Origin: Candidatus Zhuqueibacterota bacterium
Lineage (GTDB): Bacteria > Zhuqueibacterota > Zhuqueibacteria > Thermofontimicrobiales > Thermofontimicrobiaceae
Reading direction: 5' to 3'
Assembly: GCA_049322915.1 (NCBI GenBank)
Contig: JBMOPW010000012.1
Coordinates: forward strand, 32,001 to 96,000
DNA length: 64,000 bases
The position numbers were made by a program, and so were the translations under genes. The notes under the pieces were generated by a model. The model made no database searches, was not told where the DNA came from, and saw only the letters and a program-made list of their open reading frames with translations. Of this stretch, positions 4,853 through 41,442 are shown one piece after another. Positions within the stretch are counted from its first letter, which is position 1. Every line of letters starts with the position of its first letter.

Positions 4853-5659
4853 ATGAAAACACTCACCATCAGGATAGTGGCGCTGGCAATCATTCTCATG
4901 GCCATTGCCGGAAGCGCATCCCATGGGTTCGCTCAAAAGCAGTTTGAAGGATACTGGGAACAGGACGCCATCCGTCCGGCCATGCCGTTCAATACAAAGT
5001 CCACGACCACGGAGAAGGAAAAGACCTTCTATAAAACAGGTAAATTCAAGATCGAAAATCTGACCACCGGCTTGATCATTATTTTCCGGTTCGATAAAGA
5101 AGTCATGTGGACCGTGGATACCAAAAAGAAAACCTACACGGAAATGACCTTTGCCCAAATGGAAGCCATGAAAAATTCCATGGCCTCTTCCATGCAGGAA
5201 CAGATGAAAAATATGTCCGATGAACAAAAACAGATGATGGAAAAAATGATGGGCAAAAAATTCAAGTCCATGATGACCGGCGATCCGGCCGATCTGGAAA
5301 TTCAGGTCACCAAAACAGGCAAGTCAAAGACCCTGCTGGGTTACTCGTGCGACGAAGTGCTTCTCAAACTGAACGAAGAACCGATGATGGAAATGTGGAT
5401 CACCAACAAATTCCGCATGGGACAGGAGTACCTGGATCTGTACAAAAAAATGGGATTCATGAAAGGCGAATATACCGACGAAGTGAAGAAGATTCAGGGG
5501 ATACCATTGGCTTCGAAAACGACGATCGACGCCGGCATGGGCAAAATGGAAGTCAGCACCACAGTCACCAAAATCGTTGAGCAGTCGGTGCCGAACAGCG
5601 AATTTGATCTGCCCGCCGGCCTGAAGAAGACCGAACATCCCGGCATGAATATCAAGTAA
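4853..5659 (+). CDS. DUF4412-like secreted protein
   Basis: Signal peptide; TGKSKTLLGYSCDEV, EMWIT, GIPL and SEFDLPAG motifs typical of DUF4412. Confidence 0.7.
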   Translation: MKTLTIRIVALAIILMAIAGSASHGFAQKQFEGYWEQDAIRPAMPFNTKSTTTEKEKTFYKTGKFKIENLTTGLIIIFRFDKEVMWTVDTKKKTYTEMTFAQMEAMKNSMASSMQEQMKNMSDEQKQMMEKMMGKKFKSMMTGDPADLEIQVTKTGKSKTLLGYSCDEVLLKLNEEPMMEMWITNKFRMGQEYLDLYKKMGFMKGEYTDEVKKIQGIPLASKTTIDAGMGKMEVSTTVTKIVEQSVPNSEFDLPAGLKKTEHPGMNIK

Positions 5660-6137
5660 ATTGACGCGTAATACCATTTTAACTTTTATGTGGCATCGAT
5701 AGGTGGCTGTTCCGTATCATCGCTGAATATCAGCCACGAAGACGCGAAGCCGCCAAGAGAGTAAAATACAAACAACGTGTACCGAATAATTCCTCTTGTT
5801 GAATTCATTTTCGGTAATGAATTACTAACTGCTCGAGGCAGGCTTGGTGTCCTGGCGCCTTTGAGGCAAATAAATGATGCAATGAAGATTTCCAGATGCA
5901 AAATTCATCGGTATGCCACTCAAAGGTTAACATGATATATGATATCTCTGTTACTGCGCAGTCAAATCAACTTTATACCTGAGTGCGACGCCTTTTTGGA
6001 ATCAGATTCCATGATAGCTGGTACAATATGTTTGAAAATATGCGATCATAATTCTTACATTGATTTAGCGTAAAATATTTGATATTTTCAGATATAATTT
6101 AAGGCGTTCAACACGGATTTTTATTCGGGAATTCATT

Positions 6138-7771: not shown

Positions 7772-9280
7772 ATGAAATTTTCTCCCAAACATTCCTTGAC
7801 GGATTCTGAACTTCAGGCTGGTTTGCGCTTCGTTGTCTACGATGGACTGGCATCCCAGGCCATGATCACTTTGACCAGCGGTGTTTTTCTGGTGGATTTT
7901 GCGCTTCAATTGGGCGCTTCGAATACCATCATCGGCTTGTTAGCTGCAATTCCGCCAATCACGCAACTGATCCAGATACCATCGGTTTATCTGGTGGAGC
8001 ATTATCAGAACCGCCGCAAAATTGCGGTCTATTCCGCGGCGCTGAGCCGGTTCTTTCTGCTGCTCATGGCGCTCATTCCGTTTTTTTTCAAATCAAATCT
8101 GGCGCTGGCCATGTTGTCCGGCGCCCTCATCGGCCATACCTCGTTGAATGCAGTGCTGGTGTGCTCGTGGAATTCCTGGATGCGCGACCTGGTGCCGCAG
8201 GACATTCTGGGCTCGTTCTTCTCCAAGCGCATCGCCTTTTCGCTGATCCCGGCGATCACGCTCAGCCTGGCAGCCGGCTTTTTCATTGACAACTGGAATG
8301 CCTTCTTCCCCGGGGACATTATTTTCAGCTATTCGGTTCTGTTCATTCTGGGCTTTGTCGCCGGCATGATCGGCGCAGCCATCATCGCTCGGATCCCGGA
8401 GCCGCTCATGGCCCGGTCGAAACAAAAACCCCAACTCTCCAAACTCATCAAGCAGCCTTTCAGGGATAAAAATTTCAAAAACCTGATCATATTTCTGGGC
8501 GCATGGAATTTCGCTGTCAATCTGGCGGCCCCGTTTTTCACCGTGTACATGCTAAAAAACCTCGAACTGGAGATGTCCTTTGTCATCGGATTTACCGTGG
8601 TGAGTCAACTGGCAAACATGGGGTTTTTGAGGGTATGGGGAAAATTGTCGGATCGCTTCAGCAACAAGCCGCTGCTGGCGCTGAGCGGAATCACGTTCAT
8701 TCTGTGCATTCTGGGATGGACATTCACGACCATGCCGGATAAGCACCAGTTCACCCTGCCGTTGCTCGCGGTGCTGCACATTTTTATGGGAATCGCCACG
8801 GCCGGCGTGGGACTGGCAGGCGGCAACATCGGACTGAAATTAGCGCCGCGCGGAAAAGCGACGTCCTACCTGGCGGCTAATAGCTTCATCAACTCGCTGG
8901 CTGCTGGAATCGCGCCGATTATTGGCGGCGGTTTCGTGGATTTCTTTGAGAAGCGGGAATTGTCCTGGACGCTCAAATGGACCAGCCCCGAAGGAATACT
9001 ATCGATCCAGACGCTGAATCTGCGCGGCTTCGACTTCTTCTTCTTCCTCGCTTTTCTCATCGGGCTTTATTCATTGCACAGGCTGGCGTTTGTCCGCGAA
9101 GTCGGCGAAGTCAGGGAGAAGGTCATTATCGAAGAAATTTTTGCCGGCGCCACCCGGCGGGTGCGCAATCTATCCTCGGTCGGCGGACTGCGGTATCTGG
9201 CTCAGCTCCCCACAACGCTATTCAAAAGCCGAACCCGGCAGGACGGCTCGAAAAAGAGACCCGGGCGCTCCACAAAGTGA
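7772..9280 (+). CDS. MFS transporter
   Basis: About 12 TM segments, WGKLSDRFSNK loop motif. Confidence 0.85.
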   Translation: MKFSPKHSLTDSELQAGLRFVVYDGLASQAMITLTSGVFLVDFALQLGASNTIIGLLAAIPPITQLIQIPSVYLVEHYQNRRKIAVYSAALSRFFLLLMALIPFFFKSNLALAMLSGALIGHTSLNAVLVCSWNSWMRDLVPQDILGSFFSKRIAFSLIPAITLSLAAGFFIDNWNAFFPGDIIFSYSVLFILGFVAGMIGAAIIARIPEPLMARSKQKPQLSKLIKQPFRDKNFKNLIIFLGAWNFAVNLAAPFFTVYMLKNLELEMSFVIGFTVVSQLANMGFLRVWGKLSDRFSNKPLLALSGITFILCILGWTFTTMPDKHQFTLPLLAVLHIFMGIATAGVGLAGGNIGLKLAPRGKATSYLAANSFINSLAAGIAPIIGGGFVDFFEKRELSWTLKWTSPEGILSIQTLNLRGFDFFFFLAFLIGLYSLHRLAFVREVGEVREKVIIEEIFAGATRRVRNLSSVGGLRYLAQLPTTLFKSRTRQDGSKKRPGRSTK

Positions 9281-9366
9281 GGCGATGGCCGGGCGCATGG
9301 GACGATAGGGAAAGACGTCGGACCGCTTTCGCCGCCGCGGTCGTTCGATCCCGGTAGCGTCGCCTG

Positions 9367-10296
9367 TCAGGCAGCCAGCAATTTCTCCACATCCGACCGC
9401 GTGGGCATCGATGGCTGAGCGCCCATTTTGGTCACAGACAGCGCCGCAACGGCGTTGGCAAATCGCACGGCTGAGGGCAACTTCTGCCCTTCAGCCAGGG
9501 CCACCGCCAGCCCGGCATTGAACGCGTCGCCGGCAGCCGTGGTGTCCACCGCCTTCATTTTCCATGTCGGAACTTCTCCGCTCTCGTCCGCGGATTGGAA
9601 GAACGCTCCCTGTTCGCCCAGCGTGAGCACAACTGTCCCAACACCCTTTCGCCGGAGCGCCTCCGCGATTGCGGTCAACTGCATCGCCGGCAGCGACGTC
9701 ATGGCCGCGGCTTCTGTCTCGTTCGGCGTGATGACTGAAATAGCGCCGAAAAAATCCTGCGGCAGTTCGTGCGCCGGCGCCGGATTGAGAATGACCGCTG
9801 CATTGGCGCGTCGGCCCGTCTTGAGAATGTACCCCACGGTCTCCAGCGGAATTTCCAATTGGATGAGAATGACGTCCGAGGTCTCCAGAGCAGGCCTCAG
9901 TTTTTCAAGATCAGAGACCGTCAACCGGGCGTTTGCCCCGGGCACGACGACGATTCGGTTCTGTCCGCGTTCGTCCACTTCAATCAGCGCCACGCCGGTG
10001 GGCGCCTGTTCATCCTGCAGAATGAAATCCGGCGCAATGCCATACCGGAGCTGATTTTCGCGCGCCTGTTGGCCGAACTGGTCAGCTCCGATTTTCGTGA
10101 TGAACCGTACGTCTCCGCCCAATCGGGCAACTCCCACAGCCTGATTGGCGCCTTTGCCGCCGTGGAAAATCTGAAACGCCTCGCCGATCACGGTCTCCCC
10201 CGTTGCCGGGAGCCGCTTTGCCTTTGCCACCAGATCGATGTTGGTGCTGCCAATGACGGTTATCTTCGACACTCGAATTGCTCCTTCTCTTTTCAA
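9367..10296 (-). CDS. rbsK: Ribokinase
   Basis: GGKGANQA, NPAPA, TPNETEA and DTTAAGDAFN motifs. Confidence 0.92.
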   Translation of the reverse strand: MKREGAIRVSKITVIGSTNIDLVAKAKRLPATGETVIGEAFQIFHGGKGANQAVGVARLGGDVRFITKIGADQFGQQARENQLRYGIAPDFILQDEQAPTGVALIEVDERGQNRIVVVPGANARLTVSDLEKLRPALETSDVILIQLEIPLETVGYILKTGRRANAAVILNPAPAHELPQDFFGAISVITPNETEAAAMTSLPAMQLTAIAEALRRKGVGTVVLTLGEQGAFFQSADESGEVPTWKMKAVDTTAAGDAFNAGLAVALAEGQKLPSAVRFANAVAALSVTKMGAQPSMPTRSDVEKLLAA

Positions 10297-35031: not shown

Positions 35032-36270
35032 ATGAAAAATAAACTCATTCCCATCTTCTCTATTTTAATCATCTTCATCTTTCTGACCTGCGCCGGCCAG
35101 CGAGAAAAAAGCATCATGATCTGGCATTCGATGCGGCCTCTGGCTACGAAAATTTTGCAGGACAAGCTGGATGAATTTTCCGAACGACACCCGGGCTGGA
35201 AATTCAGCCAGCTTTTTTACGAGCCGGAAACAGCCCGAACCAATTACATCATCTCTGCCATGGGCGGCAGCGGCCCGGATCTCTTCTGGGGCGCCAGCGA
35301 TAATATCGGTCCGTTTGTCGAGCTCAATGTCATTCAGCCTCTGGAATCAATCTTCAACCCAGCCTTTCTGGATAGCTTCATCGCTGAGCCTATCCCGGCG
35401 AACATCTGGTTTCAGAATCATCTCTACCAAATTGCGGATCAGATCGGGAATCATCTGTGTCTGGTGTACAATAAAGACCTTGTGCCCGTTCCACCCCGGA
35501 CTATCGGCGAATTGATCCGTTTGGGGAAACAATTGACCAGAGACCTGGACGGCGACGGCAAACCGGATCGCTATGCATTGGCCTGGAATTACACGGAGCC
35601 TTTCTTTGCAGTGCCGTTCATCAGTGGCTATGGCGGATGGATAATGGATTCCGATAATCATCCCACGTTGAACACCGATGCAGTGGTCAAGGCCGCACAG
35701 CTCATTTTTGATCTGGCAAATAAAGAAAAAATCATTCCAATGGAATGCGATTACGAGATTGCCAACGCCCTTTTCCTCGACGGCTATGCCGCAATGATCA
35801 TCAACGGGCCGTGGTCGTGGGGCACTTACCTGGAAAATAAAATCAATTTGGGGATCGCCCGAATTCCCAAAATCGATGAGACAGGGCTGTGGCCTGCCCC
35901 ACTGGTCTCCTCCATGGGCTACTCAGTCAATATCAATGTGAAGGATGAAAAGCTGGCCATTGCCACAGAACTGGTTGAATTTTTAACGTCAGACTCGATG
36001 CAGCTCACGTTCTCGCGGGCCATGGGCACAGTGCCCTCGCGCAAGGCGGCGTTCAGCGACACGCTCATCACCCGAAATCAAATTGTGCAGAGCTCCATTG
36101 ACCAGATGCAGGTCGCCCGAGTGATGCCGGTTGTGACGGAACTGCGCTGGATCTGGGACGCCATGCGGCCGAGTTATCAATCCATTTTCACAGGGGGAAT
36201 GAACCCGAAACAGGCCGCTGAAGCGATGCAGGCGCTGGCCGAAAAATTAATCAAGGAAAATCGGGAGTGA
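35032..36270 (+). CDS. Sugar ABC transporter substrate-binding lipoprotein (MalE-like)
   Basis: Lipoprotein-like N-terminus, GPDL, LVYNKDLV, AAMIINGPW. Confidence 0.88.
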   Translation: MKNKLIPIFSILIIFIFLTCAGQREKSIMIWHSMRPLATKILQDKLDEFSERHPGWKFSQLFYEPETARTNYIISAMGGSGPDLFWGASDNIGPFVELNVIQPLESIFNPAFLDSFIAEPIPANIWFQNHLYQIADQIGNHLCLVYNKDLVPVPPRTIGELIRLGKQLTRDLDGDGKPDRYALAWNYTEPFFAVPFISGYGGWIMDSDNHPTLNTDAVVKAAQLIFDLANKEKIIPMECDYEIANALFLDGYAAMIINGPWSWGTYLENKINLGIARIPKIDETGLWPAPLVSSMGYSVNINVKDEKLAIATELVEFLTSDSMQLTFSRAMGTVPSRKAAFSDTLITRNQIVQSSIDQMQVARVMPVVTELRWIWDAMRPSYQSIFTGGMNPKQAAEAMQALAEKLIKENRE

Positions 36271-36271
36271 T

Positions 36272-37165
36272 ATGGCTTCTGGTATCGGAAATATCGAGAA
36301 CAACCGTCTTGCCTACCTGTACACGGTGCCGGCCTTCGTGGTCATGGGGCTGGTTGTGCTGTACCCGTTTGTCTATAACATCATCCTGTCTTTTTCCAAC
36401 ATGAATCTGAGCCATTTCAACAACTGGCGACTCACAGGTTTTGAAAATTATTCTGCCGTCTTCCGGGAACGCACATTCTGGTATTTTTTAGGCAAGACTT
36501 TTTTGTGGACGGCGGTCAATGTATTTTTCCACGTGACCATCGGCGTCGCGCTGGCGCTCATTTTGAACAAAGACATCAAAGGGAAATCGTTTTTCCGCAC
36601 CCTGCTCATTCTGCCGTGGGCTGTCCCGCAGTACATCACCGCCCTCACCTGGCGCGGTCTGTTCAACTCCGAATACGGCGCGGTGAGCCTCATGCTGGAT
36701 CAGGCTTTCGGCGTGCAGATTCCCTGGCTCACCACCGAATGGGGCGCGTTCACTGCCTGCGTCATCACCAATGTCTGGCTGGGCTTCCCGTTTATGATGG
36801 TCATTGCCCTGGGCGGATTGCAGAGCATCCCGGAAGAATTGTACGAAGCCTCGGACATCGACGGCGCTTCCTGGTACCACAAGCTGAAACATATCACACT
36901 GCCGCTGCTCAAGCCGGTGATGATCCCGGCCATCACGCTCGGCATTATCTGGACGTTCAATAATTTCAACGTGGTGTGGCTGGTGAGCAACGGCGGCGAG
37001 CCGGCGGATACGACGCATATTCTGGTCTCCTGGGTCTACAAGTCAGGATTCCGCTATTTCCGCATGGGCTACGCCGCTGCGTTCTCCATGATCATCTTCA
37101 TCTTCCTGCTCACGTTCAGTTGGAATTTCATCAAAAAGACGCGGGCGACCGAGGCGGTGTATTAG
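36272..37165 (+). CDS. Sugar ABC permease (MalF-like)
   Basis: EAA loop LQSIPEELYEASDIDGA; ILPWAVP. Confidence 0.92.
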   Translation: MASGIGNIENNRLAYLYTVPAFVVMGLVVLYPFVYNIILSFSNMNLSHFNNWRLTGFENYSAVFRERTFWYFLGKTFLWTAVNVFFHVTIGVALALILNKDIKGKSFFRTLLILPWAVPQYITALTWRGLFNSEYGAVSLMLDQAFGVQIPWLTTEWGAFTACVITNVWLGFPFMMVIALGGLQSIPEELYEASDIDGASWYHKLKHITLPLLKPVMIPAITLGIIWTFNNFNVVWLVSNGGEPADTTHILVSWVYKSGFRYFRMGYAAAFSMIIFIFLLTFSWNFIKKTRATEAVY

Positions 37166-37329
37166 CTTTTTTTTGACCTGAATTATTTGTATATTTTCCA
37201 CTGTTTTCATTTCCCAATATTCAGAGTACATCGGTTAAGATATCTGATCTTAACGATTCGATTTAACATGCTGTTCAACATATCAGCAATGTCAATAAAA
37301 AGATGAATCAAACGCAGCAGGGACTCACG

Positions 37330-37574
37330 ATGTACGAAATAAAATTTAAGAAAAATGCAGTTTAGGAATTACAAAAGCTACCTCAAAAAGATGGTCAAAA
37401 AATTATAGAAAGATTTCACTGCTGGCAAATGGTCTAACTGGTGATATTAAAAAACTGACAGATTTTACACCTGAGTATCGGCTTAGGGCTGGTGGTTATC
37501 GCGTTCTGTTTGAAATAGAAGAAAATGGTATCATAATTTATCATATAAAGCAAAGAGGAGAGGCATACACATGA
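37330..37574 (+). pseudogene. relE: RelE/ParE toxin pseudogene
   Basis: MYEIKFKKNAV* (TAG at codon 12), a frameshift near 37410, then GDIKKLTDFTPEYRLRAGGYRVLFEIE...HIKQRGEAYT; ATGA overlap with the antitoxin. Confidence 0.8.
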
Positions 37575-37771
37575 TAGCAATTAACCCAGAAATTTTAAAA
37601 AGAGACAATAAGGCTGACTTTGCAATTCTTGATTATAATGAGTATCATAAGTTGCCCGAATATATTCAAGATATTGAAGACCTTGTAGACTTACGAAACG
37701 CAAAAGCGGATACTAAAGATGAAGCAACAATTTCGCTTGATAAAGTAAAAGAAACTTTAGGCATTGATTGA
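37571..37771 (+). CDS. Antitoxin (RelB/Phd-like)
   Basis: FAILDYNEY...IEDLVDLRNAK...ISLDKVKETLG; coupled to the relE remnant. Confidence 0.75.
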   Translation: MIAINPEILKRDNKADFAILDYNEYHKLPEYIQDIEDLVDLRNAKADTKDEATISLDKVKETLGID

Positions 37772-37790
37772 AAATCAACTTCAATCGATA

Positions 37791-37963
37791 GTGACAGCAA
37801 TTAAGCCGAAGAAAAAATTCACCGCAAATATCAGGAAAATTGATAATACAGCATTCACTATCGGCAGTCTTCACGACGATGGGGATGAAAAGCAAAACCG
37901 GTCAACCAAAACATATCAATAAAAAATACAAGCTCTTGAAATGCTGAGACAAATAATCTATGG
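37791..37963 (+). pseudogene. 5' part of a small hypothetical gene interrupted by the cassette
   Basis: KIDNTAFTIGSLHDDGDEK...*KIQALEMLRQIIYG; the frame continues (YDSSTERI...) after 40541; one internal TAA. Confidence 0.6.
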
Positions 37964-40541
37964 TTAGCCGTGTATACAAATACAATATTGTGATAAAATT
38001 ATGATAACACAAATTAATAAATTAAAAGAGATCGGTATTTTCAAAGATTTCAATTGGAACAATGACATTCCTGATTTTAATAAAAAAAATATAATATTTG
38101 GATATAACGGATGTGGAAAGACGACATTAACTAATATTTTTAATTTGTTTTCCCAAATAGACAAAATTGAAAAAGATGAGTTATTTGCGGACATAGTGAA
38201 TGATAAAGACATTTCTGAAATTGAATTAGTTTTCGATGGGAAAAAAGTTAAATACAATAAAGATTTAGCTAATGAAAAAATATGGATCTTTAATACAGGA
38301 TTTATTACAGGTCATATTTATGATGGTTCTTCATCAAATATTAAACAGTTTGATTCAAAGGTTGTAACAAAAGAACAACTCAAAAATCCAGAAATAAAAA
38401 AAATTGAAGTAACTATTACGGTGAAAAAAGATACCTTTGCTAATTTTAAAACAGATAAAGAGAAATACGAAAATGAATTTGAAAAAATTAAGAAGAAATA
38501 TCAAATTGATTTTAATAATAAAATTTCTAATAAAAGATTAACGGGTTGGAATTTACCCAGCCATGCAACCCAGATCGATCTTAATAAAATCGATCAAGAG
38601 CTTGATGGATATTATAAGAAATACGAGCTTTCCCAAAAACAGGATGAATTTGCTAATGATATAGTCGAAATCGAAAAAATATTCATAAAATCAATTAAGC
38701 TTGATTTTGAAAATCTAACGATTGCATTTTTAAAAAGTATCTCAGAAACTGCAAGAGAGAAAGTTGAACAAAAAATAGCAACCTTATCTGAAGTTCAATT
38801 AAAAAATTATAAAAGTTTGAGTGAATGGTTTGAAGATGGACTCCAGCTTTTAAAGAGAAATGATTCAAGTAAATTTTATAAATGCCCACTCTGTGATAGC
38901 GATATAAAATTGAAAATTAATTCGTTAATTGGTGATTATGAAAGCTATTTTAATGATGAGTATAAAATTCTTATTAAAGACCTAAATACTCAATCAGAAC
39001 AAATCGACATTATTAAAGAAATTTTGAAAGATAATATAATTTCCATTGAAAAAATAAAAACATTTGATAGTAAGTATTCTTATCTCATTGATACAGACAA
39101 AAAAATAAATTATGAATATTCATTGGAGACCTGTGAAAAGGAATTAGAAAATTTACAGAAGCTGATTTCAGATAAAAAGGAAAATGTATCATCCAAAGTA
39201 CAGGCAGATAGTCTATTAAAAAACTTGAAGAATTTAGTTAATGATTATAATGTTAATTTCTTAAAACCTATCCATGAACAGAAAACTCTTATTTTTCAAG
39301 AATTGAAGAATCAAACTTTAAATGAATCTGTAATCGCTGATAAAATAAAAAATTTAATACAACAGAAGGGCAATTATGATTTTGATACTTTTGATACTGG
39401 TAATTTAATAAGCGTATATTGGCAGAATGAAAATAATATAAAAAACATCAAAGATGACTTGTCGAAATTAGAAAGACAATTAGAATCTTCATTGGCTAAA
39501 CTAAAAAATGAATCCAAATATGTTAATTTTTTTCTGAAACGATTGGGGATATTTCATTTTGAAATAAACATTGACAACACGAAGCCAAAAGAGAATATTT
39601 CAATACTTTATGAAAGCGGATGCACCAAAAATAAATTAAAAAATTCAATCAGCGAAAGTGAAAAATCAGCCTTAGCATTTGCTTACTTCTTAAGCAAATT
39701 ACAATATGAAGTAATTGATAATACAACAACCAAATTGTCAGAATGTATCGTTATACTTGACGATCCAGTTTCAAGCTTAGACGAAAGGCGGCTTTATTCT
39801 ACAGCTTTTTTAATAAATGATTTGTTAAAAGATGCAGGTCAATTATTTGTTATTAGTCATAATCTTATATTCTTAAAATATTATGGTAATATTCTTAGTG
39901 GCGATGATAGAAATGACTATTTTTTAAATGTAAGAAATAATCTTCCACTACTTCAATCCCTTCCTAAATCACTCTCAAATTATAAGACAGCTTATTTTCA
40001 AAAATTAGATGATATTTTATCATATATAAATAATGACATTGATTACGAACAAGCTAAAAAGTCTATACCAGGTTGTATTCGTGTTGTCTTAGAAACATTT
40101 TTAAGTTTTAAGCTCTATATTTTAAAACAAGGTAGTAGCACTAATAAATATTTGTCGCCTGGATTAGATAAATTGATAAAAACTTTGAGCGGCCATATCG
40201 GATTATTTAAGAAATATGAAAAAGTCGAAGATATTGATCATGAAAATATTATCTCAAAATTGGAATTTATAAAAAAGACGACTGATCCCCAATGTCATGG
40301 TAGTCCGCAAAATATTGATGAATTCAATTTTATTGATGAAGCTGAATTGAAATTAATTTCTCGTGACGCTTTAAATATCATTAAATTTTTTGATAACGTT
40401 CATTATAATCAAATACAAAACGGCTAACAATCGGCTGCACCTGACAAAACTGCGGTGTTTCAAATCGGGTTAAGTGCAAAGTTTTACAGTCATTTCGTTG
40501 TGTTAAATATAGTGTAGCAGTTTTGCAGGTGAGCCGGGTCG
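37964..40541 (+). mobile_element. Complete integron gene cassette at a secondary site
   Basis: Starts G|TTAGCCG, carries a single ORF whose stop overlaps CGGCTAAC (exact complement of the left core), then a full attC, and ends G|TTATGA. Confidence 0.88.
38001..40427 (+). CDS. RloC-like AAA_13 ABC ATPase with zinc hook and HEPN-like C-terminus
   Basis: GYNGCGKT, coiled coil with CPLC hook, ISESEK signature, ILDDPVSSLD, ISHN, C-terminal IRVVLETFLSFK...QCHG; very AT-rich. Confidence 0.8.
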   Translation: MITQINKLKEIGIFKDFNWNNDIPDFNKKNIIFGYNGCGKTTLTNIFNLFSQIDKIEKDELFADIVNDKDISEIELVFDGKKVKYNKDLANEKIWIFNTGFITGHIYDGSSSNIKQFDSKVVTKEQLKNPEIKKIEVTITVKKDTFANFKTDKEKYENEFEKIKKKYQIDFNNKISNKRLTGWNLPSHATQIDLNKIDQELDGYYKKYELSQKQDEFANDIVEIEKIFIKSIKLDFENLTIAFLKSISETAREKVEQKIATLSEVQLKNYKSLSEWFEDGLQLLKRNDSSKFYKCPLCDSDIKLKINSLIGDYESYFNDEYKILIKDLNTQSEQIDIIKEILKDNIISIEKIKTFDSKYSYLIDTDKKINYEYSLETCEKELENLQKLISDKKENVSSKVQADSLLKNLKNLVNDYNVNFLKPIHEQKTLIFQELKNQTLNESVIADKIKNLIQQKGNYDFDTFDTGNLISVYWQNENNIKNIKDDLSKLERQLESSLAKLKNESKYVNFFLKRLGIFHFEINIDNTKPKENISILYESGCTKNKLKNSISESEKSALAFAYFLSKLQYEVIDNTTTKLSECIVILDDPVSSLDERRLYSTAFLINDLLKDAGQLFVISHNLIFLKYYGNILSGDDRNDYFLNVRNNLPLLQSLPKSLSNYKTAYFQKLDDILSYINNDIDYEQAKKSIPGCIRVVLETFLSFKLYILKQGSSTNKYLSPGLDKLIKTLSGHIGLFKKYEKVEDIDHENIISKLEFIKKTTDPQCHGSPQNIDEFNFIDEAELKLISRDALNIIKFFDNVHYNQIQNG

Positions 40542-40547
40542 TTATGA
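40422..40547 (+). repeat. Canonical attC site
   Basis: R'' GGCTAAC; arm CGGCT(G)CACCTG(A)CAAAACTGC pairs with GCAGTTTTGCAGGTGAGCCG except for two extrahelical bases; R' GTTATGA. Confidence 0.92.
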
Positions 40548-40599
40548 TTCGTCAACCGAACGGATTAATAAATATTTTAAAATGGTAATGGGTTGAACT

Positions 40600-41442
40600 A
40601 TGCGAAAACCACGAGACCTATCTCTCACAGGAAAAATCGGCGCGTACTCGGTGCTGACGCTGTTCACACTGTTCTCTGTCTACCCCATCCTTCGCGTCTT
40701 CACGATCTCGATTCGGCCCGGGGACAGGCTGTTGAGCAAATCGCTGGCGCTCATTCCCGAGAACGCCACGCTGGACACCTACGTTCGTCTGTTCACAAAC
40801 GAACCCTTTCTCACATGGATGGGCAACAGCCTCATCATTTCATTGGTGGTTATGATTGTGGGCGTGGGATTGGCCGCCACTGCCGGCTATGCCTTTTCGC
40901 GGTACAAATTTGTCGGCAAGGATGCAGCCATGTTCAGCCTCATCACCACGCAAATGTTCCCCATGACCATGTTGCTGCTGCCTTTGTTCATTATGCTGAT
41001 CAAATTAAAACTTTACGATTCATACATCGGACTCATCGTTGCCTATTCCGCCACGGCATTGCCCTTTACCACGTGGCAGATGAAAGGCTACTACGACACC
41101 ATACCGTACAGTCTGGAAGAGGCCGCGTCCATTGATGGCTGCTCCCAGTTCGCCACCTTCTGGCGGATTGTCCTTCCCCTTGCCGCGCCGGCGCTGGTCA
41201 TCACCGCGCTGTTCTCGTTCATGGCCGCCTGGTCTGAATATCTCGTTGCAGCGGTGCTCATTCAGGACCAGAGCCTGTTCACGCTGCCGCTGGGATTGAA
41301 GACATTCCAGTCCGCCATGGAAACATCCTGGGGATTGTATTCTGCCGGGGCAATCATTGTAAGTCTGCCAGTCGTCATTCTGTTTCTCTTTCTCAGTCGT
41401 TGGTTAATTTCCGGTCTCACTCTCGGAAGCGTTAAAGGTTAA
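40600..41442 (+). CDS. Sugar ABC permease (MalG-like)
   Basis: KGYYDTIPYSLEEAASIDGC, TQMFP, GLTLGSVKG. Confidence 0.92.
   Translation: MRKPRDLSLTGKIGAYSVLTLFTLFSVYPILRVFTISIRPGDRLLSKSLALIPENATLDTYVRLFTNEPFLTWMGNSLIISLVVMIVGVGLAATAGYAFSRYKFVGKDAAMFSLITTQMFPMTMLLLPLFIMLIKLKLYDSYIGLIVAYSATALPFTTWQMKGYYDTIPYSLEEAASIDGCSQFATFWRIVLPLAAPALVITALFSFMAAWSEYLVAAVLIQDQSLFTLPLGLKTFQSAMETSWGLYSAGAIIVSLPVVILFLFLSRWLISGLTLGSVKG

Follow-up and report, generated by a model that had tools for sequence, protein, structure and literature searches.

Results

A single cassette inside a small gene of a transporter operon

The DNA studied here is a stretch of 64,000 nucleotides (the window), positions 32001-96000 of contig C12 of the source assembly G000 (GCA_049322915.1, Candidatus Zhuqueibacterota bacterium), which is a metagenome-type assembly of 6.25 Mb in 45 contigs, 96.3% complete, with a GC content of 0.488. 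Between two permease genes of a sugar ATP-binding cassette (ABC) transporter operon, the window carries one integron gene cassette, composed of one open reading frame (ORF) and one cassette recombination site (attC), which interrupts a small protein-coding gene. The insertion is precise, the uninterrupted gene is the ancestral state and no integron lies nearby. For comparison we used G001, a genome of the same genus (94% complete), as the sister species. The features of the cassette and of its target gene are as follows; positions are those of the window.

37836-37963, + strand: left part of the target gene (residues ~5-47 of a ~70-aa family), a pseudogene; tblastn of 13 homologues, 46-70% identity, all ending at 37964
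37963-37964, + strand: left recombination junction between G and TT (target G, cassette TTAGCCG); direct reading and G001 alignment
37964-40541, + strand: integron gene cassette, 2578 bp, from the TT of the left crossover to the G of the R' core of its own attC; absent from G001
38001-40427, + strand: cassette ORF, 808 aa, AAA_13 ATPase with a CPLC motif and a putative Abi_C/DUF4145-like domain at the C-terminus; Pfam AAA_13, PADLOC and structural leads from the Atlas
40422-40547, + strand: attC, 126 nt; fold, 11-site alignment, covariation and covariance models
40541-40542, + strand: right recombination junction between G and TT (cassette G, target TTATGAT); direct reading and G001 alignment
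40542-40596, + strand: right part of the target gene (YDSSTERINKYFKMVMG, then TGA); 8 of 13 homologues match from 40543, and G001 alignment

Boundaries of the cassette and the empty site

One G001 contig (C137) matched the window on both sides of the cassette, at 36302-37966 (79% identity) and 40593-41399 (85%), and the two matches are separated by about 100 nt in G001 compared with 2627 nt in the window. The G001 sequence across this point, ...GAGGCAAATAATCTATGGTTATGATCCATCTACCGAACGA..., is the left flank of the window up to 37963 joined to the right flank from 40542, and it can be read at further lengths as ...ATCTATGGTTATGAT... and ...CAAATAATCTATGGTTATGATCC.... Because the G001 sequence equals the joined flanks exactly, the insert is defined as 37964-40541. 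The target site for recombination is ATCTATGGTTATGATCC, and the uninterrupted site TATGGTTATGAT is present in G001 with 5'GWT3' at the crossover. A reading made earlier from the letters of the window (the sequence-only reading) had predicted this rejoined sequence, and G001 carries it without a difference. For two other lone attC sites of the source assembly, a search for empty sites in G001 gave a match only downstream of the attC on C20 and no match for the site on C2, and neither outcome is informative.

The left junction reads ...ATCTATGG up to 37963 and TTAGCCGTG... from 37964. The R'' core CGGCTAAC (40421-40428) is the exact reverse complement, at 8 of 8 positions, of G (37963) plus TTAGCCG (37964-37970), and on circularisation the left end of the cassette would complete an R' core complementary to R''. 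The present R' is GTTATGA (40541-40547). Both the complementarity and this R' were part of the sequence-only reading, and direct reading bears them out. GTTA is common to both junctions; the crossover can be placed anywhere inside it, consistent with a cut between G and TT. The cassette holds only one ORF, which starts 37 nt from the left end and has its TAA stop inside the R'' core, and the insert contains neither a transposase gene nor terminal inverted repeats. The GC content of the cassette is 23-30%, compared with 48.8% for the genome.

An independently assembled Logan contig of 26,709 nt, with an even word depth of 61.8, agrees with the window at every position of 37700-40800 (0 differences). 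An error peculiar to one assembler is ruled out, because this contig bridges both junctions, and the possibility of an assembly chimera that had been raised with the sequence-only reading is answered to that extent. The contigs of the same run (contigs, not reads) contained no minority empty-site or alternative joint. Two further runs of that study, X2 and X3, contain almost nothing of the stretch, which is no evidence of absence.

The attC site

The attC is made up of R'' GGCTAAC (40422-40428), a spacer AATC, the L'' arm, a variable loop of ~65 nt, the L' arm, a spacer GGGTC and the hybrid R'. Its L'' arm carries two extra bases on the top strand, G and A, 6 nt apart. Folding of the bottom strand of 40415-40555 gives a long, imperfect hairpin in which a spacer beside the AAC/GTT pairs stays unpaired (-19.3 kcal/mol, z -2.77; shuffled controls -12.2 +/- 2.6 kcal/mol, 2 of 200 folding as well). 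On this strand the bulges are T and C, 6 nt apart on the R''-L'' arm, as expected of extrahelical bases. The consensus of attC cores is RYYYAAC/GTTRRRY, from which the R'' of the window deviates at one position.

Among 125 genomes of the class, BLAST with a 146-nt piece containing the site gave homologues in 9, one of them the source assembly, which contained two further homologues. The site of the window and ten homologues align over their full length, loop included. In this 11-site family the AAC/GTT cores are kept in 10-11 members and the bulged columns 17 and 24 in all 11. Pairing holds in 96.7% of the cells of the alignment and 8 of 23 pairs covary (for example GGCTGCACCTG/CAGGTGAGCC versus GGTTTCAACCTG/CAGGTTAAACC, where both sides change); none of 500 shuffles matched the observed values. 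Sliding the partner by 1-3 columns as a control lowered the pairing to 28-47%.

An attC covariance model (R1) scored the window site at 127.6 bits. A leave-one-out model (R2), made from the ten other sites with the window site excluded, found the site at full length at 40422-40547 (112.4 bits, E 8.7e-26). With filters off, neither model detected a second attC in the 64 kb, the next R2 match on the + strand having an E value of 0.51. A scan for AAC...GTT hairpins that is independent of the family, covering 37100-40620, gave -21.9 kcal/mol at the attC and -8.4 for the next unrelated candidate. The attC is solitary, since the R2 scan and the hairpin scan leave one site; the sequence-only reading had placed a lone attC at this very position.

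The interrupted gene

The G001 orthologue of the target gene is an intact ORF of 67 aa, for which no Pfam family was matched. This protein has 502 homologues at E<=0.001, of which the best 120 are mostly 62-72 aa long and 55-75% identical. All 13 printed homologues read ...(L/I)MRQI(I/V)YG YDP(S/A)... across the position of the junction without interruption. In tblastn searches the left match stops at 37964 in 13 of 13 homologues, and a second match starts from the very next residue at 40543 in 8; the other 5 have no second match. Each of these second matches is short and, taken alone, weak (E 0.005-0.14). Because the homologues read straight across the junction, the uninterrupted gene is the ancestral state. 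This agrees with the sequence-only reading, in which homologues of the left fragment were expected to run on into YDSSTERI-like sequence; they run on into YD(P/S)STERL-like sequence.

The cassette splits codon 47 of the gene (GGT) after GG. The rejoined frame QIIYG-YDSSTERI reads as had been proposed and the homologues agree with it, but between stops it is open over 31 codons only, and an in-frame TAA lies at 37920-37922. Besides this stop, the copy in the window has lost its start codon and its C-terminus has diverged. Only the homologues make this frame real, and in G000 the target gene is already a pseudogene.

The cassette gene

The product of the cassette ORF is an AAA_13/ABC-type ATPase (PF13166, E 1.6e-50, residues 11-707) and matches the candidate defence family PDC-S06 of PADLOC (1.6e-55). 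A weak match to PrrC in PADLOC (1.1e-9) covers only the ATPase part (residues 473-647). The closest homologues are 48% identical, and one of them is named a wobble nucleotide-excising tRNase by the Joint Genome Institute (JGI). Residues invariant in 20 homologues are G34, N36, G37, G39 and K40 (P-loop), C295 and C298 (CxxC), D587 and D588, R694 and E698, H766, and H801. The anticodon-nuclease domain of RloC and PrrC has catalytic Arg, Glu and His residues. Pfam gave no match on residues 640-808. An ESM Atlas model of the C-terminal 170 residues resembles Abi_C (template modelling (TM) score 0.56) and DUF4145 (TM 0.55), values under the bar for naming that serve as leads. No curated NCBIfam model passes for the protein, and a PDB search gave no solved relative; the sole sequence match there, a PHD finger (E 0.0011), was dismissed as a chance match of low complexity. 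By its sequence the cargo is a candidate RloC/PrrC-like abortive-infection ATPase-nuclease, likely with an anti-phage role.

RloC, PrrC and PDC-S06 share with the cargo an AAA_13 ATPase of about 800 aa, an invariant CxxC in the middle region and, as far as the structural leads go, an Abi_C/DUF4145-like domain at the C-terminus. The prrC and rloC genes are linked to restriction-modification genes, whereas the cargo gene has no such genes linked to it. The closest homologue (L060, 48% identity) is not in a cassette, and no source of the cassette was found. In G073, an AAA_13 homologue with 31% identity (locus L058, G073:C5) is followed by an attC of the same family (1209-1337, - strand). This attC and the two intI genes of G073 are on different contigs, and the genome is near-complete in 5 contigs. 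L058 may be another off-integron cassette with similar cargo.

The operon and an older insertion

The sugar ABC-transporter operon that hosts the insertion has all its genes on the + strand. The features flanking the cassette and its target gene are:

35032-36270, + strand: solute-binding protein gene of the operon
36272-37165, + strand: ABC sugar-transporter permease 1, host gene upstream; Pfam BPD_transp_1 1.1e-16
37331-37573, + strand: RelE/ParE-like toxin pseudogene with an in-frame TAG and a frameshift (frame translations), part of an older insertion
37571-37771, + strand: Phd/YefM/RelB-like antitoxin, 66 aa, intact, overlapping the toxin pseudogene; Pfam matches of the G001 orthologue
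40600-41442, + strand: ABC sugar-transporter permease 2, host gene downstream; Pfam 5.1e-21

The DNA between the permease genes is 3434 bp long and AT-rich, with a GC content of 0.33-0.40 at 37050-37950 and 0.23-0.30 at 37950-40350, compared with 0.49-0.59 in the permease genes. We fetched 80 loci of metagenomic relatives, 72 of which have both permease genes on the locus. The gap between the two genes is 3-641 bp (median 39) in all 72, and the antitoxin, small ORF and AAA_13 gene are missing from every one of them. Other genera of the family likewise have short gaps. Among permease homologues, the nearest (80-89% identity) bear the names candidate division KSB1 and Calditrichaeota.

The target gene is part of an older, genus-specific toxin-antitoxin insertion between the permease genes. 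In G001 the toxin region is conserved yet disrupted, with no ORF of >=40 aa, and the antitoxin orthologue matches PF02604 (1.1e-5, 25.6 bits, sub-threshold against a cut-off of 29.8 bits) and PF18506 (8e-4). The antitoxin copy of the window had no Pfam match at E 0.01. As G001 also has a broken toxin gene and an intact antitoxin gene at the same place, the orphan antitoxin has been retained.

Another genus of the family (L009, G011:C729) has a different insertion of ~1.5 kb between the same permease genes. It opens with an ORF resembling a DNA methyltransferase (MLDWKNQLYYGDNL...), and the R1 model found no attC in it. Foreign DNA seems to settle repeatedly in the spacer between the permease genes.

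No terminator-like site was predicted on the + strand in 36900-40800. Promoter scanning was uninformative (24 sites versus 17.8 +/- 4.3 expected). Transcription of the cassette by read-through of the operon is plausible, because the operon and the cassette gene share their orientation and no terminator-like site is predicted.

Integrase genes and attC sites in related genomes

Integron integrase genes (intI) were detected with the TIGR02249 profile at a cut-off of 265 bits, which 14 of 41 related genomes exceed. In one case (G018) the gene shares its contig with attC sites of this family. Contig G018:C187 carries intI (411.5 bits) at 8558-9388 on the - strand and, downstream on the same strand, two attC sites found by R1 (5566-5696 and 48-182). 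The attC family is tied to true integrons because intI and two family attC sites occur together there. Across G018:C187:48-9388, intI and the attC sites are co-oriented and not divergent. This is the arrangement of the so-called inverted-integrase integrons.

Within the source assembly the attC model found 15 sites at E<=1, 10 of them below 1e-3. Single sites lie on C12 (the window), C32, C19, C20, C2, C34 and elsewhere, and same-strand clusters resembling clusters of attC sites lacking an integrase (CALIN) lie at C14:535711-539208 (3 sites) and C36:220365-230671 (4 sites). Between the C36 cluster and the contig end lie no more than 118 bp, and an integrase gene there could be absent from the assembly. 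R1 gave 0 attC in 17 other loci, namely the inter-permease regions of 11 relatives and the intI loci of 6 relatives with 1.5-kb flanks. The null result at the 6 intI loci shows only that other attC families are used there or that the flanks were too short.

Three attC sites of the source assembly (L044, C32:~240.6-242.2 kb; L046, C36:~229.0-230.5 kb; L047, C19:~87.4-88.9 kb) have a group II intron directly behind them on the same strand. The sequence at these sites is GTTAnn, then GTGCGACACGA(G/A)G, and then the intron, and Rfam scores the loci at 80-83 bits for group-II-D1D4-7 and 68-69 bits for Intron_gpII. They resemble group II introns that target attC, here in the orientation of the attC top strand. 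Repeated copies of such introns are probably a cause of contig breaks.

Discussion

Our data indicate that the locus is, with a probability of about 0.88, a natural single attC without integron integrase (SALIN), which arose by attC x attG ("GWT") insertion of a single cassette outside any integron. The window has one attC in 64 kb and no other att site, no intI or attI adjoins the cassette, whose flanks are ABC-transporter genes and the toxin-antitoxin module, and no intI over the cut-off is present in the assembly. The sequence-only reading had proposed a natural recombination of attC with a secondary site outside any integron, and the empty site, the solitary attC and the homologues crossing the junction support it. 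Loot et al. (bioRxiv 10.1101/2022.09.11.507474) describe how a folded attC bottom strand recombines with double-stranded genomic DNA, for which 5'GWT3' is the sole general requirement, cleavage taking place between G and W. The target GTT fits this attG consensus as their account gives it.

In the proposed mechanism, an integron integrase would have inserted a circular cassette carrying the RloC-like AAA_13 gene and its attC. The attC, folded as its bottom strand, would recombine with a double-stranded chromosomal 5'-GTT-3', with the crossover between G and TT; the target GTT would be that in codon 47 of the ~70-aa gene inside the older toxin-antitoxin insertion. After insertion the attC would be left with the hybrid R' GTTATGA, and the R' half of the cassette itself (TTAGCCG) would have moved to the left end, leaving a SALIN as the product. 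We infer that IntI catalysed the insertion and that it acted in trans, from an integron that is now lost, was not assembled or was transient.

Several observations weigh against this interpretation. The empty site is known from one genome, G001. Both attC models derive from homologues of the same attC family and not from the model of IntegronFinder. The canonical extrahelical bases of attC are G and T, and the first one on the bottom strand is here C instead of the typical G, a feature of 5 of the 11 family members, the window site included. The Logan contig comes from the single public run with this stretch, which is probably the source sample, and so it is not independent data. Positions +6 to +9 after the cut are ATTC and not the CRGM hotspot motif reported for IntI1; this mismatch is unsurprising for an integrase other than IntI1. 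A search for intI elsewhere in the genome, suggested along with the sequence-only reading, found none in the whole source assembly, where two Xer-like ORFs gave the best TIGR02249 scores (79 and 66 bits), a level also reached in 14 of 14 control genomes. G001 likewise has no intI over the cut-off. The absence of intI from the source assembly is weak evidence either way, because the assembly is fragmented and the attC cluster of C36 reaches a contig end. The integrase gene may have been lost, left unassembled or left unbinned.

The cassette could instead be a remnant of a larger integron or CALIN in which the genes of the left flank are older cassettes, their attC sites having decayed and the integrase having been deleted. 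Toxin-antitoxin genes are typical cassette cargo, the whole of 37166-40599 is AT-rich and foreign to the operon, as the short gaps in 72 of 72 relatives show, and attC clusters without intI do occur on C14 and C36. However, two covariance models and the hairpin scan (next candidate -8.4 kcal/mol) found no second attC in 37100-40620, the left junction lies inside a protein-coding gene that homologues read through and not at an attC or attI, and G001 holds the toxin-antitoxin module without the cassette. These results largely refute such an origin, which we consider improbable. About as improbable is the idea that the common ancestor of G000 and G001 had the cassette and that IntI excised it precisely in the G001 lineage, which would reverse the polarity of the difference between these two genomes only. 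Excision of genome-inserted cassettes at the precise insertion point is reported by Loot et al. (bioRxiv 10.1101/2022.09.11.507474), and a single genome supplies the empty site. The same earlier insertion of attC into GTT would still be needed, however, so that the timing changes but not the mechanism, and two events are less parsimonious than one. In addition, the gene is intact in G001 and lacks its start and has a stop in G000, which fits a longer disruption in G000 only.

An assembly chimera, homologous recombination or another kind of mobile element, such as a transposon duplicating 4 bp (GTTA) of its target, is the least probable explanation and we give it next to no weight. The GTTA at both junctions can be read as a 4-bp duplication, and the genome is a metagenome-type assembly of 45 contigs. 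Against this, the insert has a single ORF and an attC with no transposase or terminal inverted repeats, both junctions are bridged by the single 26.7-kb contig of a second assembler, with even word depth (61.8), and the complementarity between R'' and the left end is predicted by the cassette model alone.

The route of insertion has already been published, both as SALIN and attG and as earlier cases of secondary-site use, and the locus is a clean new example and no new mechanism. Like the SALINs described by Loot et al., it has one ORF and one attC with no intI or att site nearby, a crossover between the G and TT of 5'GWT3' in double-stranded genomic DNA, a disrupted gene, and a position downstream of host genes in the same orientation, from which it could be expressed. 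According to the same preprint (bioRxiv 10.1101/2022.09.11.507474), a lone cassette can disrupt genes, be expressed from host promoters and be excised again. The expectation of the sequence-only reading that excision should be inefficient is thus unsupported by that account. Their material, as presented there, consists of laboratory insertions by IntI1, IntI2 and IntI3 in E. coli and V. cholerae and of an IntegronFinder census with 3400 SALINs in RefSeq; the locus described here differs in being a natural event in an uncultured lineage, in the empty site kept in a sister species and in the absence of CRGM at +6 to +9. The aadB cassette at secondary sites in RSF1010 and pRAY, as cited by Loot et al. 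(bioRxiv 10.1101/2022.09.11.507474), is similarly a single, complete cassette, inserted with precision behind a host promoter at a place that is not an att site. In those cases the cassettes are for resistance and reside on plasmids from clinical bacteria, whereas here a candidate defence gene is chromosomal and a gene is interrupted. CALINs as defined by Cury et al. (2016, PMC4889954) are also attC sites without a neighbouring intI, like the clusters on C14 and C36, but comprise two or more attC, unlike the window with exactly one in 64 kb.

Cassette insertion outside integrons has so far been known from laboratory demonstration and from inference based on censuses of lone attC sites. The present locus confirms this published work and does not change it, but in it every element of the model is visible: an attC as donor, its hybrid R', a left end with the matching complementarity, a crossover that falls between G and TT, and the untouched site of a sister species. 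The widespread protein family of the target proves which state is ancestral. A candidate anti-phage gene is, moreover, fixed in the chromosome with its integron absent, and this in a phylum of which little is known.

It is possible, although we hold this view only tentatively, that for cassettes of this uncultured lineage near KSB1/Calditrichaeota off-integron insertion is a main lifestyle rather than an accident that happens now and then. This suggestion is made because a single attC family recurs on many contigs, alone or in small clusters, in genomes with and without intI (15 sites in G000), dispersed attC sites of G073 are on contigs other than those of intI, and AAA_13 defence-type cargo recurs. 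It is also based on the group II introns behind three attC sites and on the way in which the cassette of the window is wired into a sugar-transporter operon for expression. If this is true, these genomes, with their empty sites, would document in nature which targets a non-clinical, co-oriented integrase prefers.

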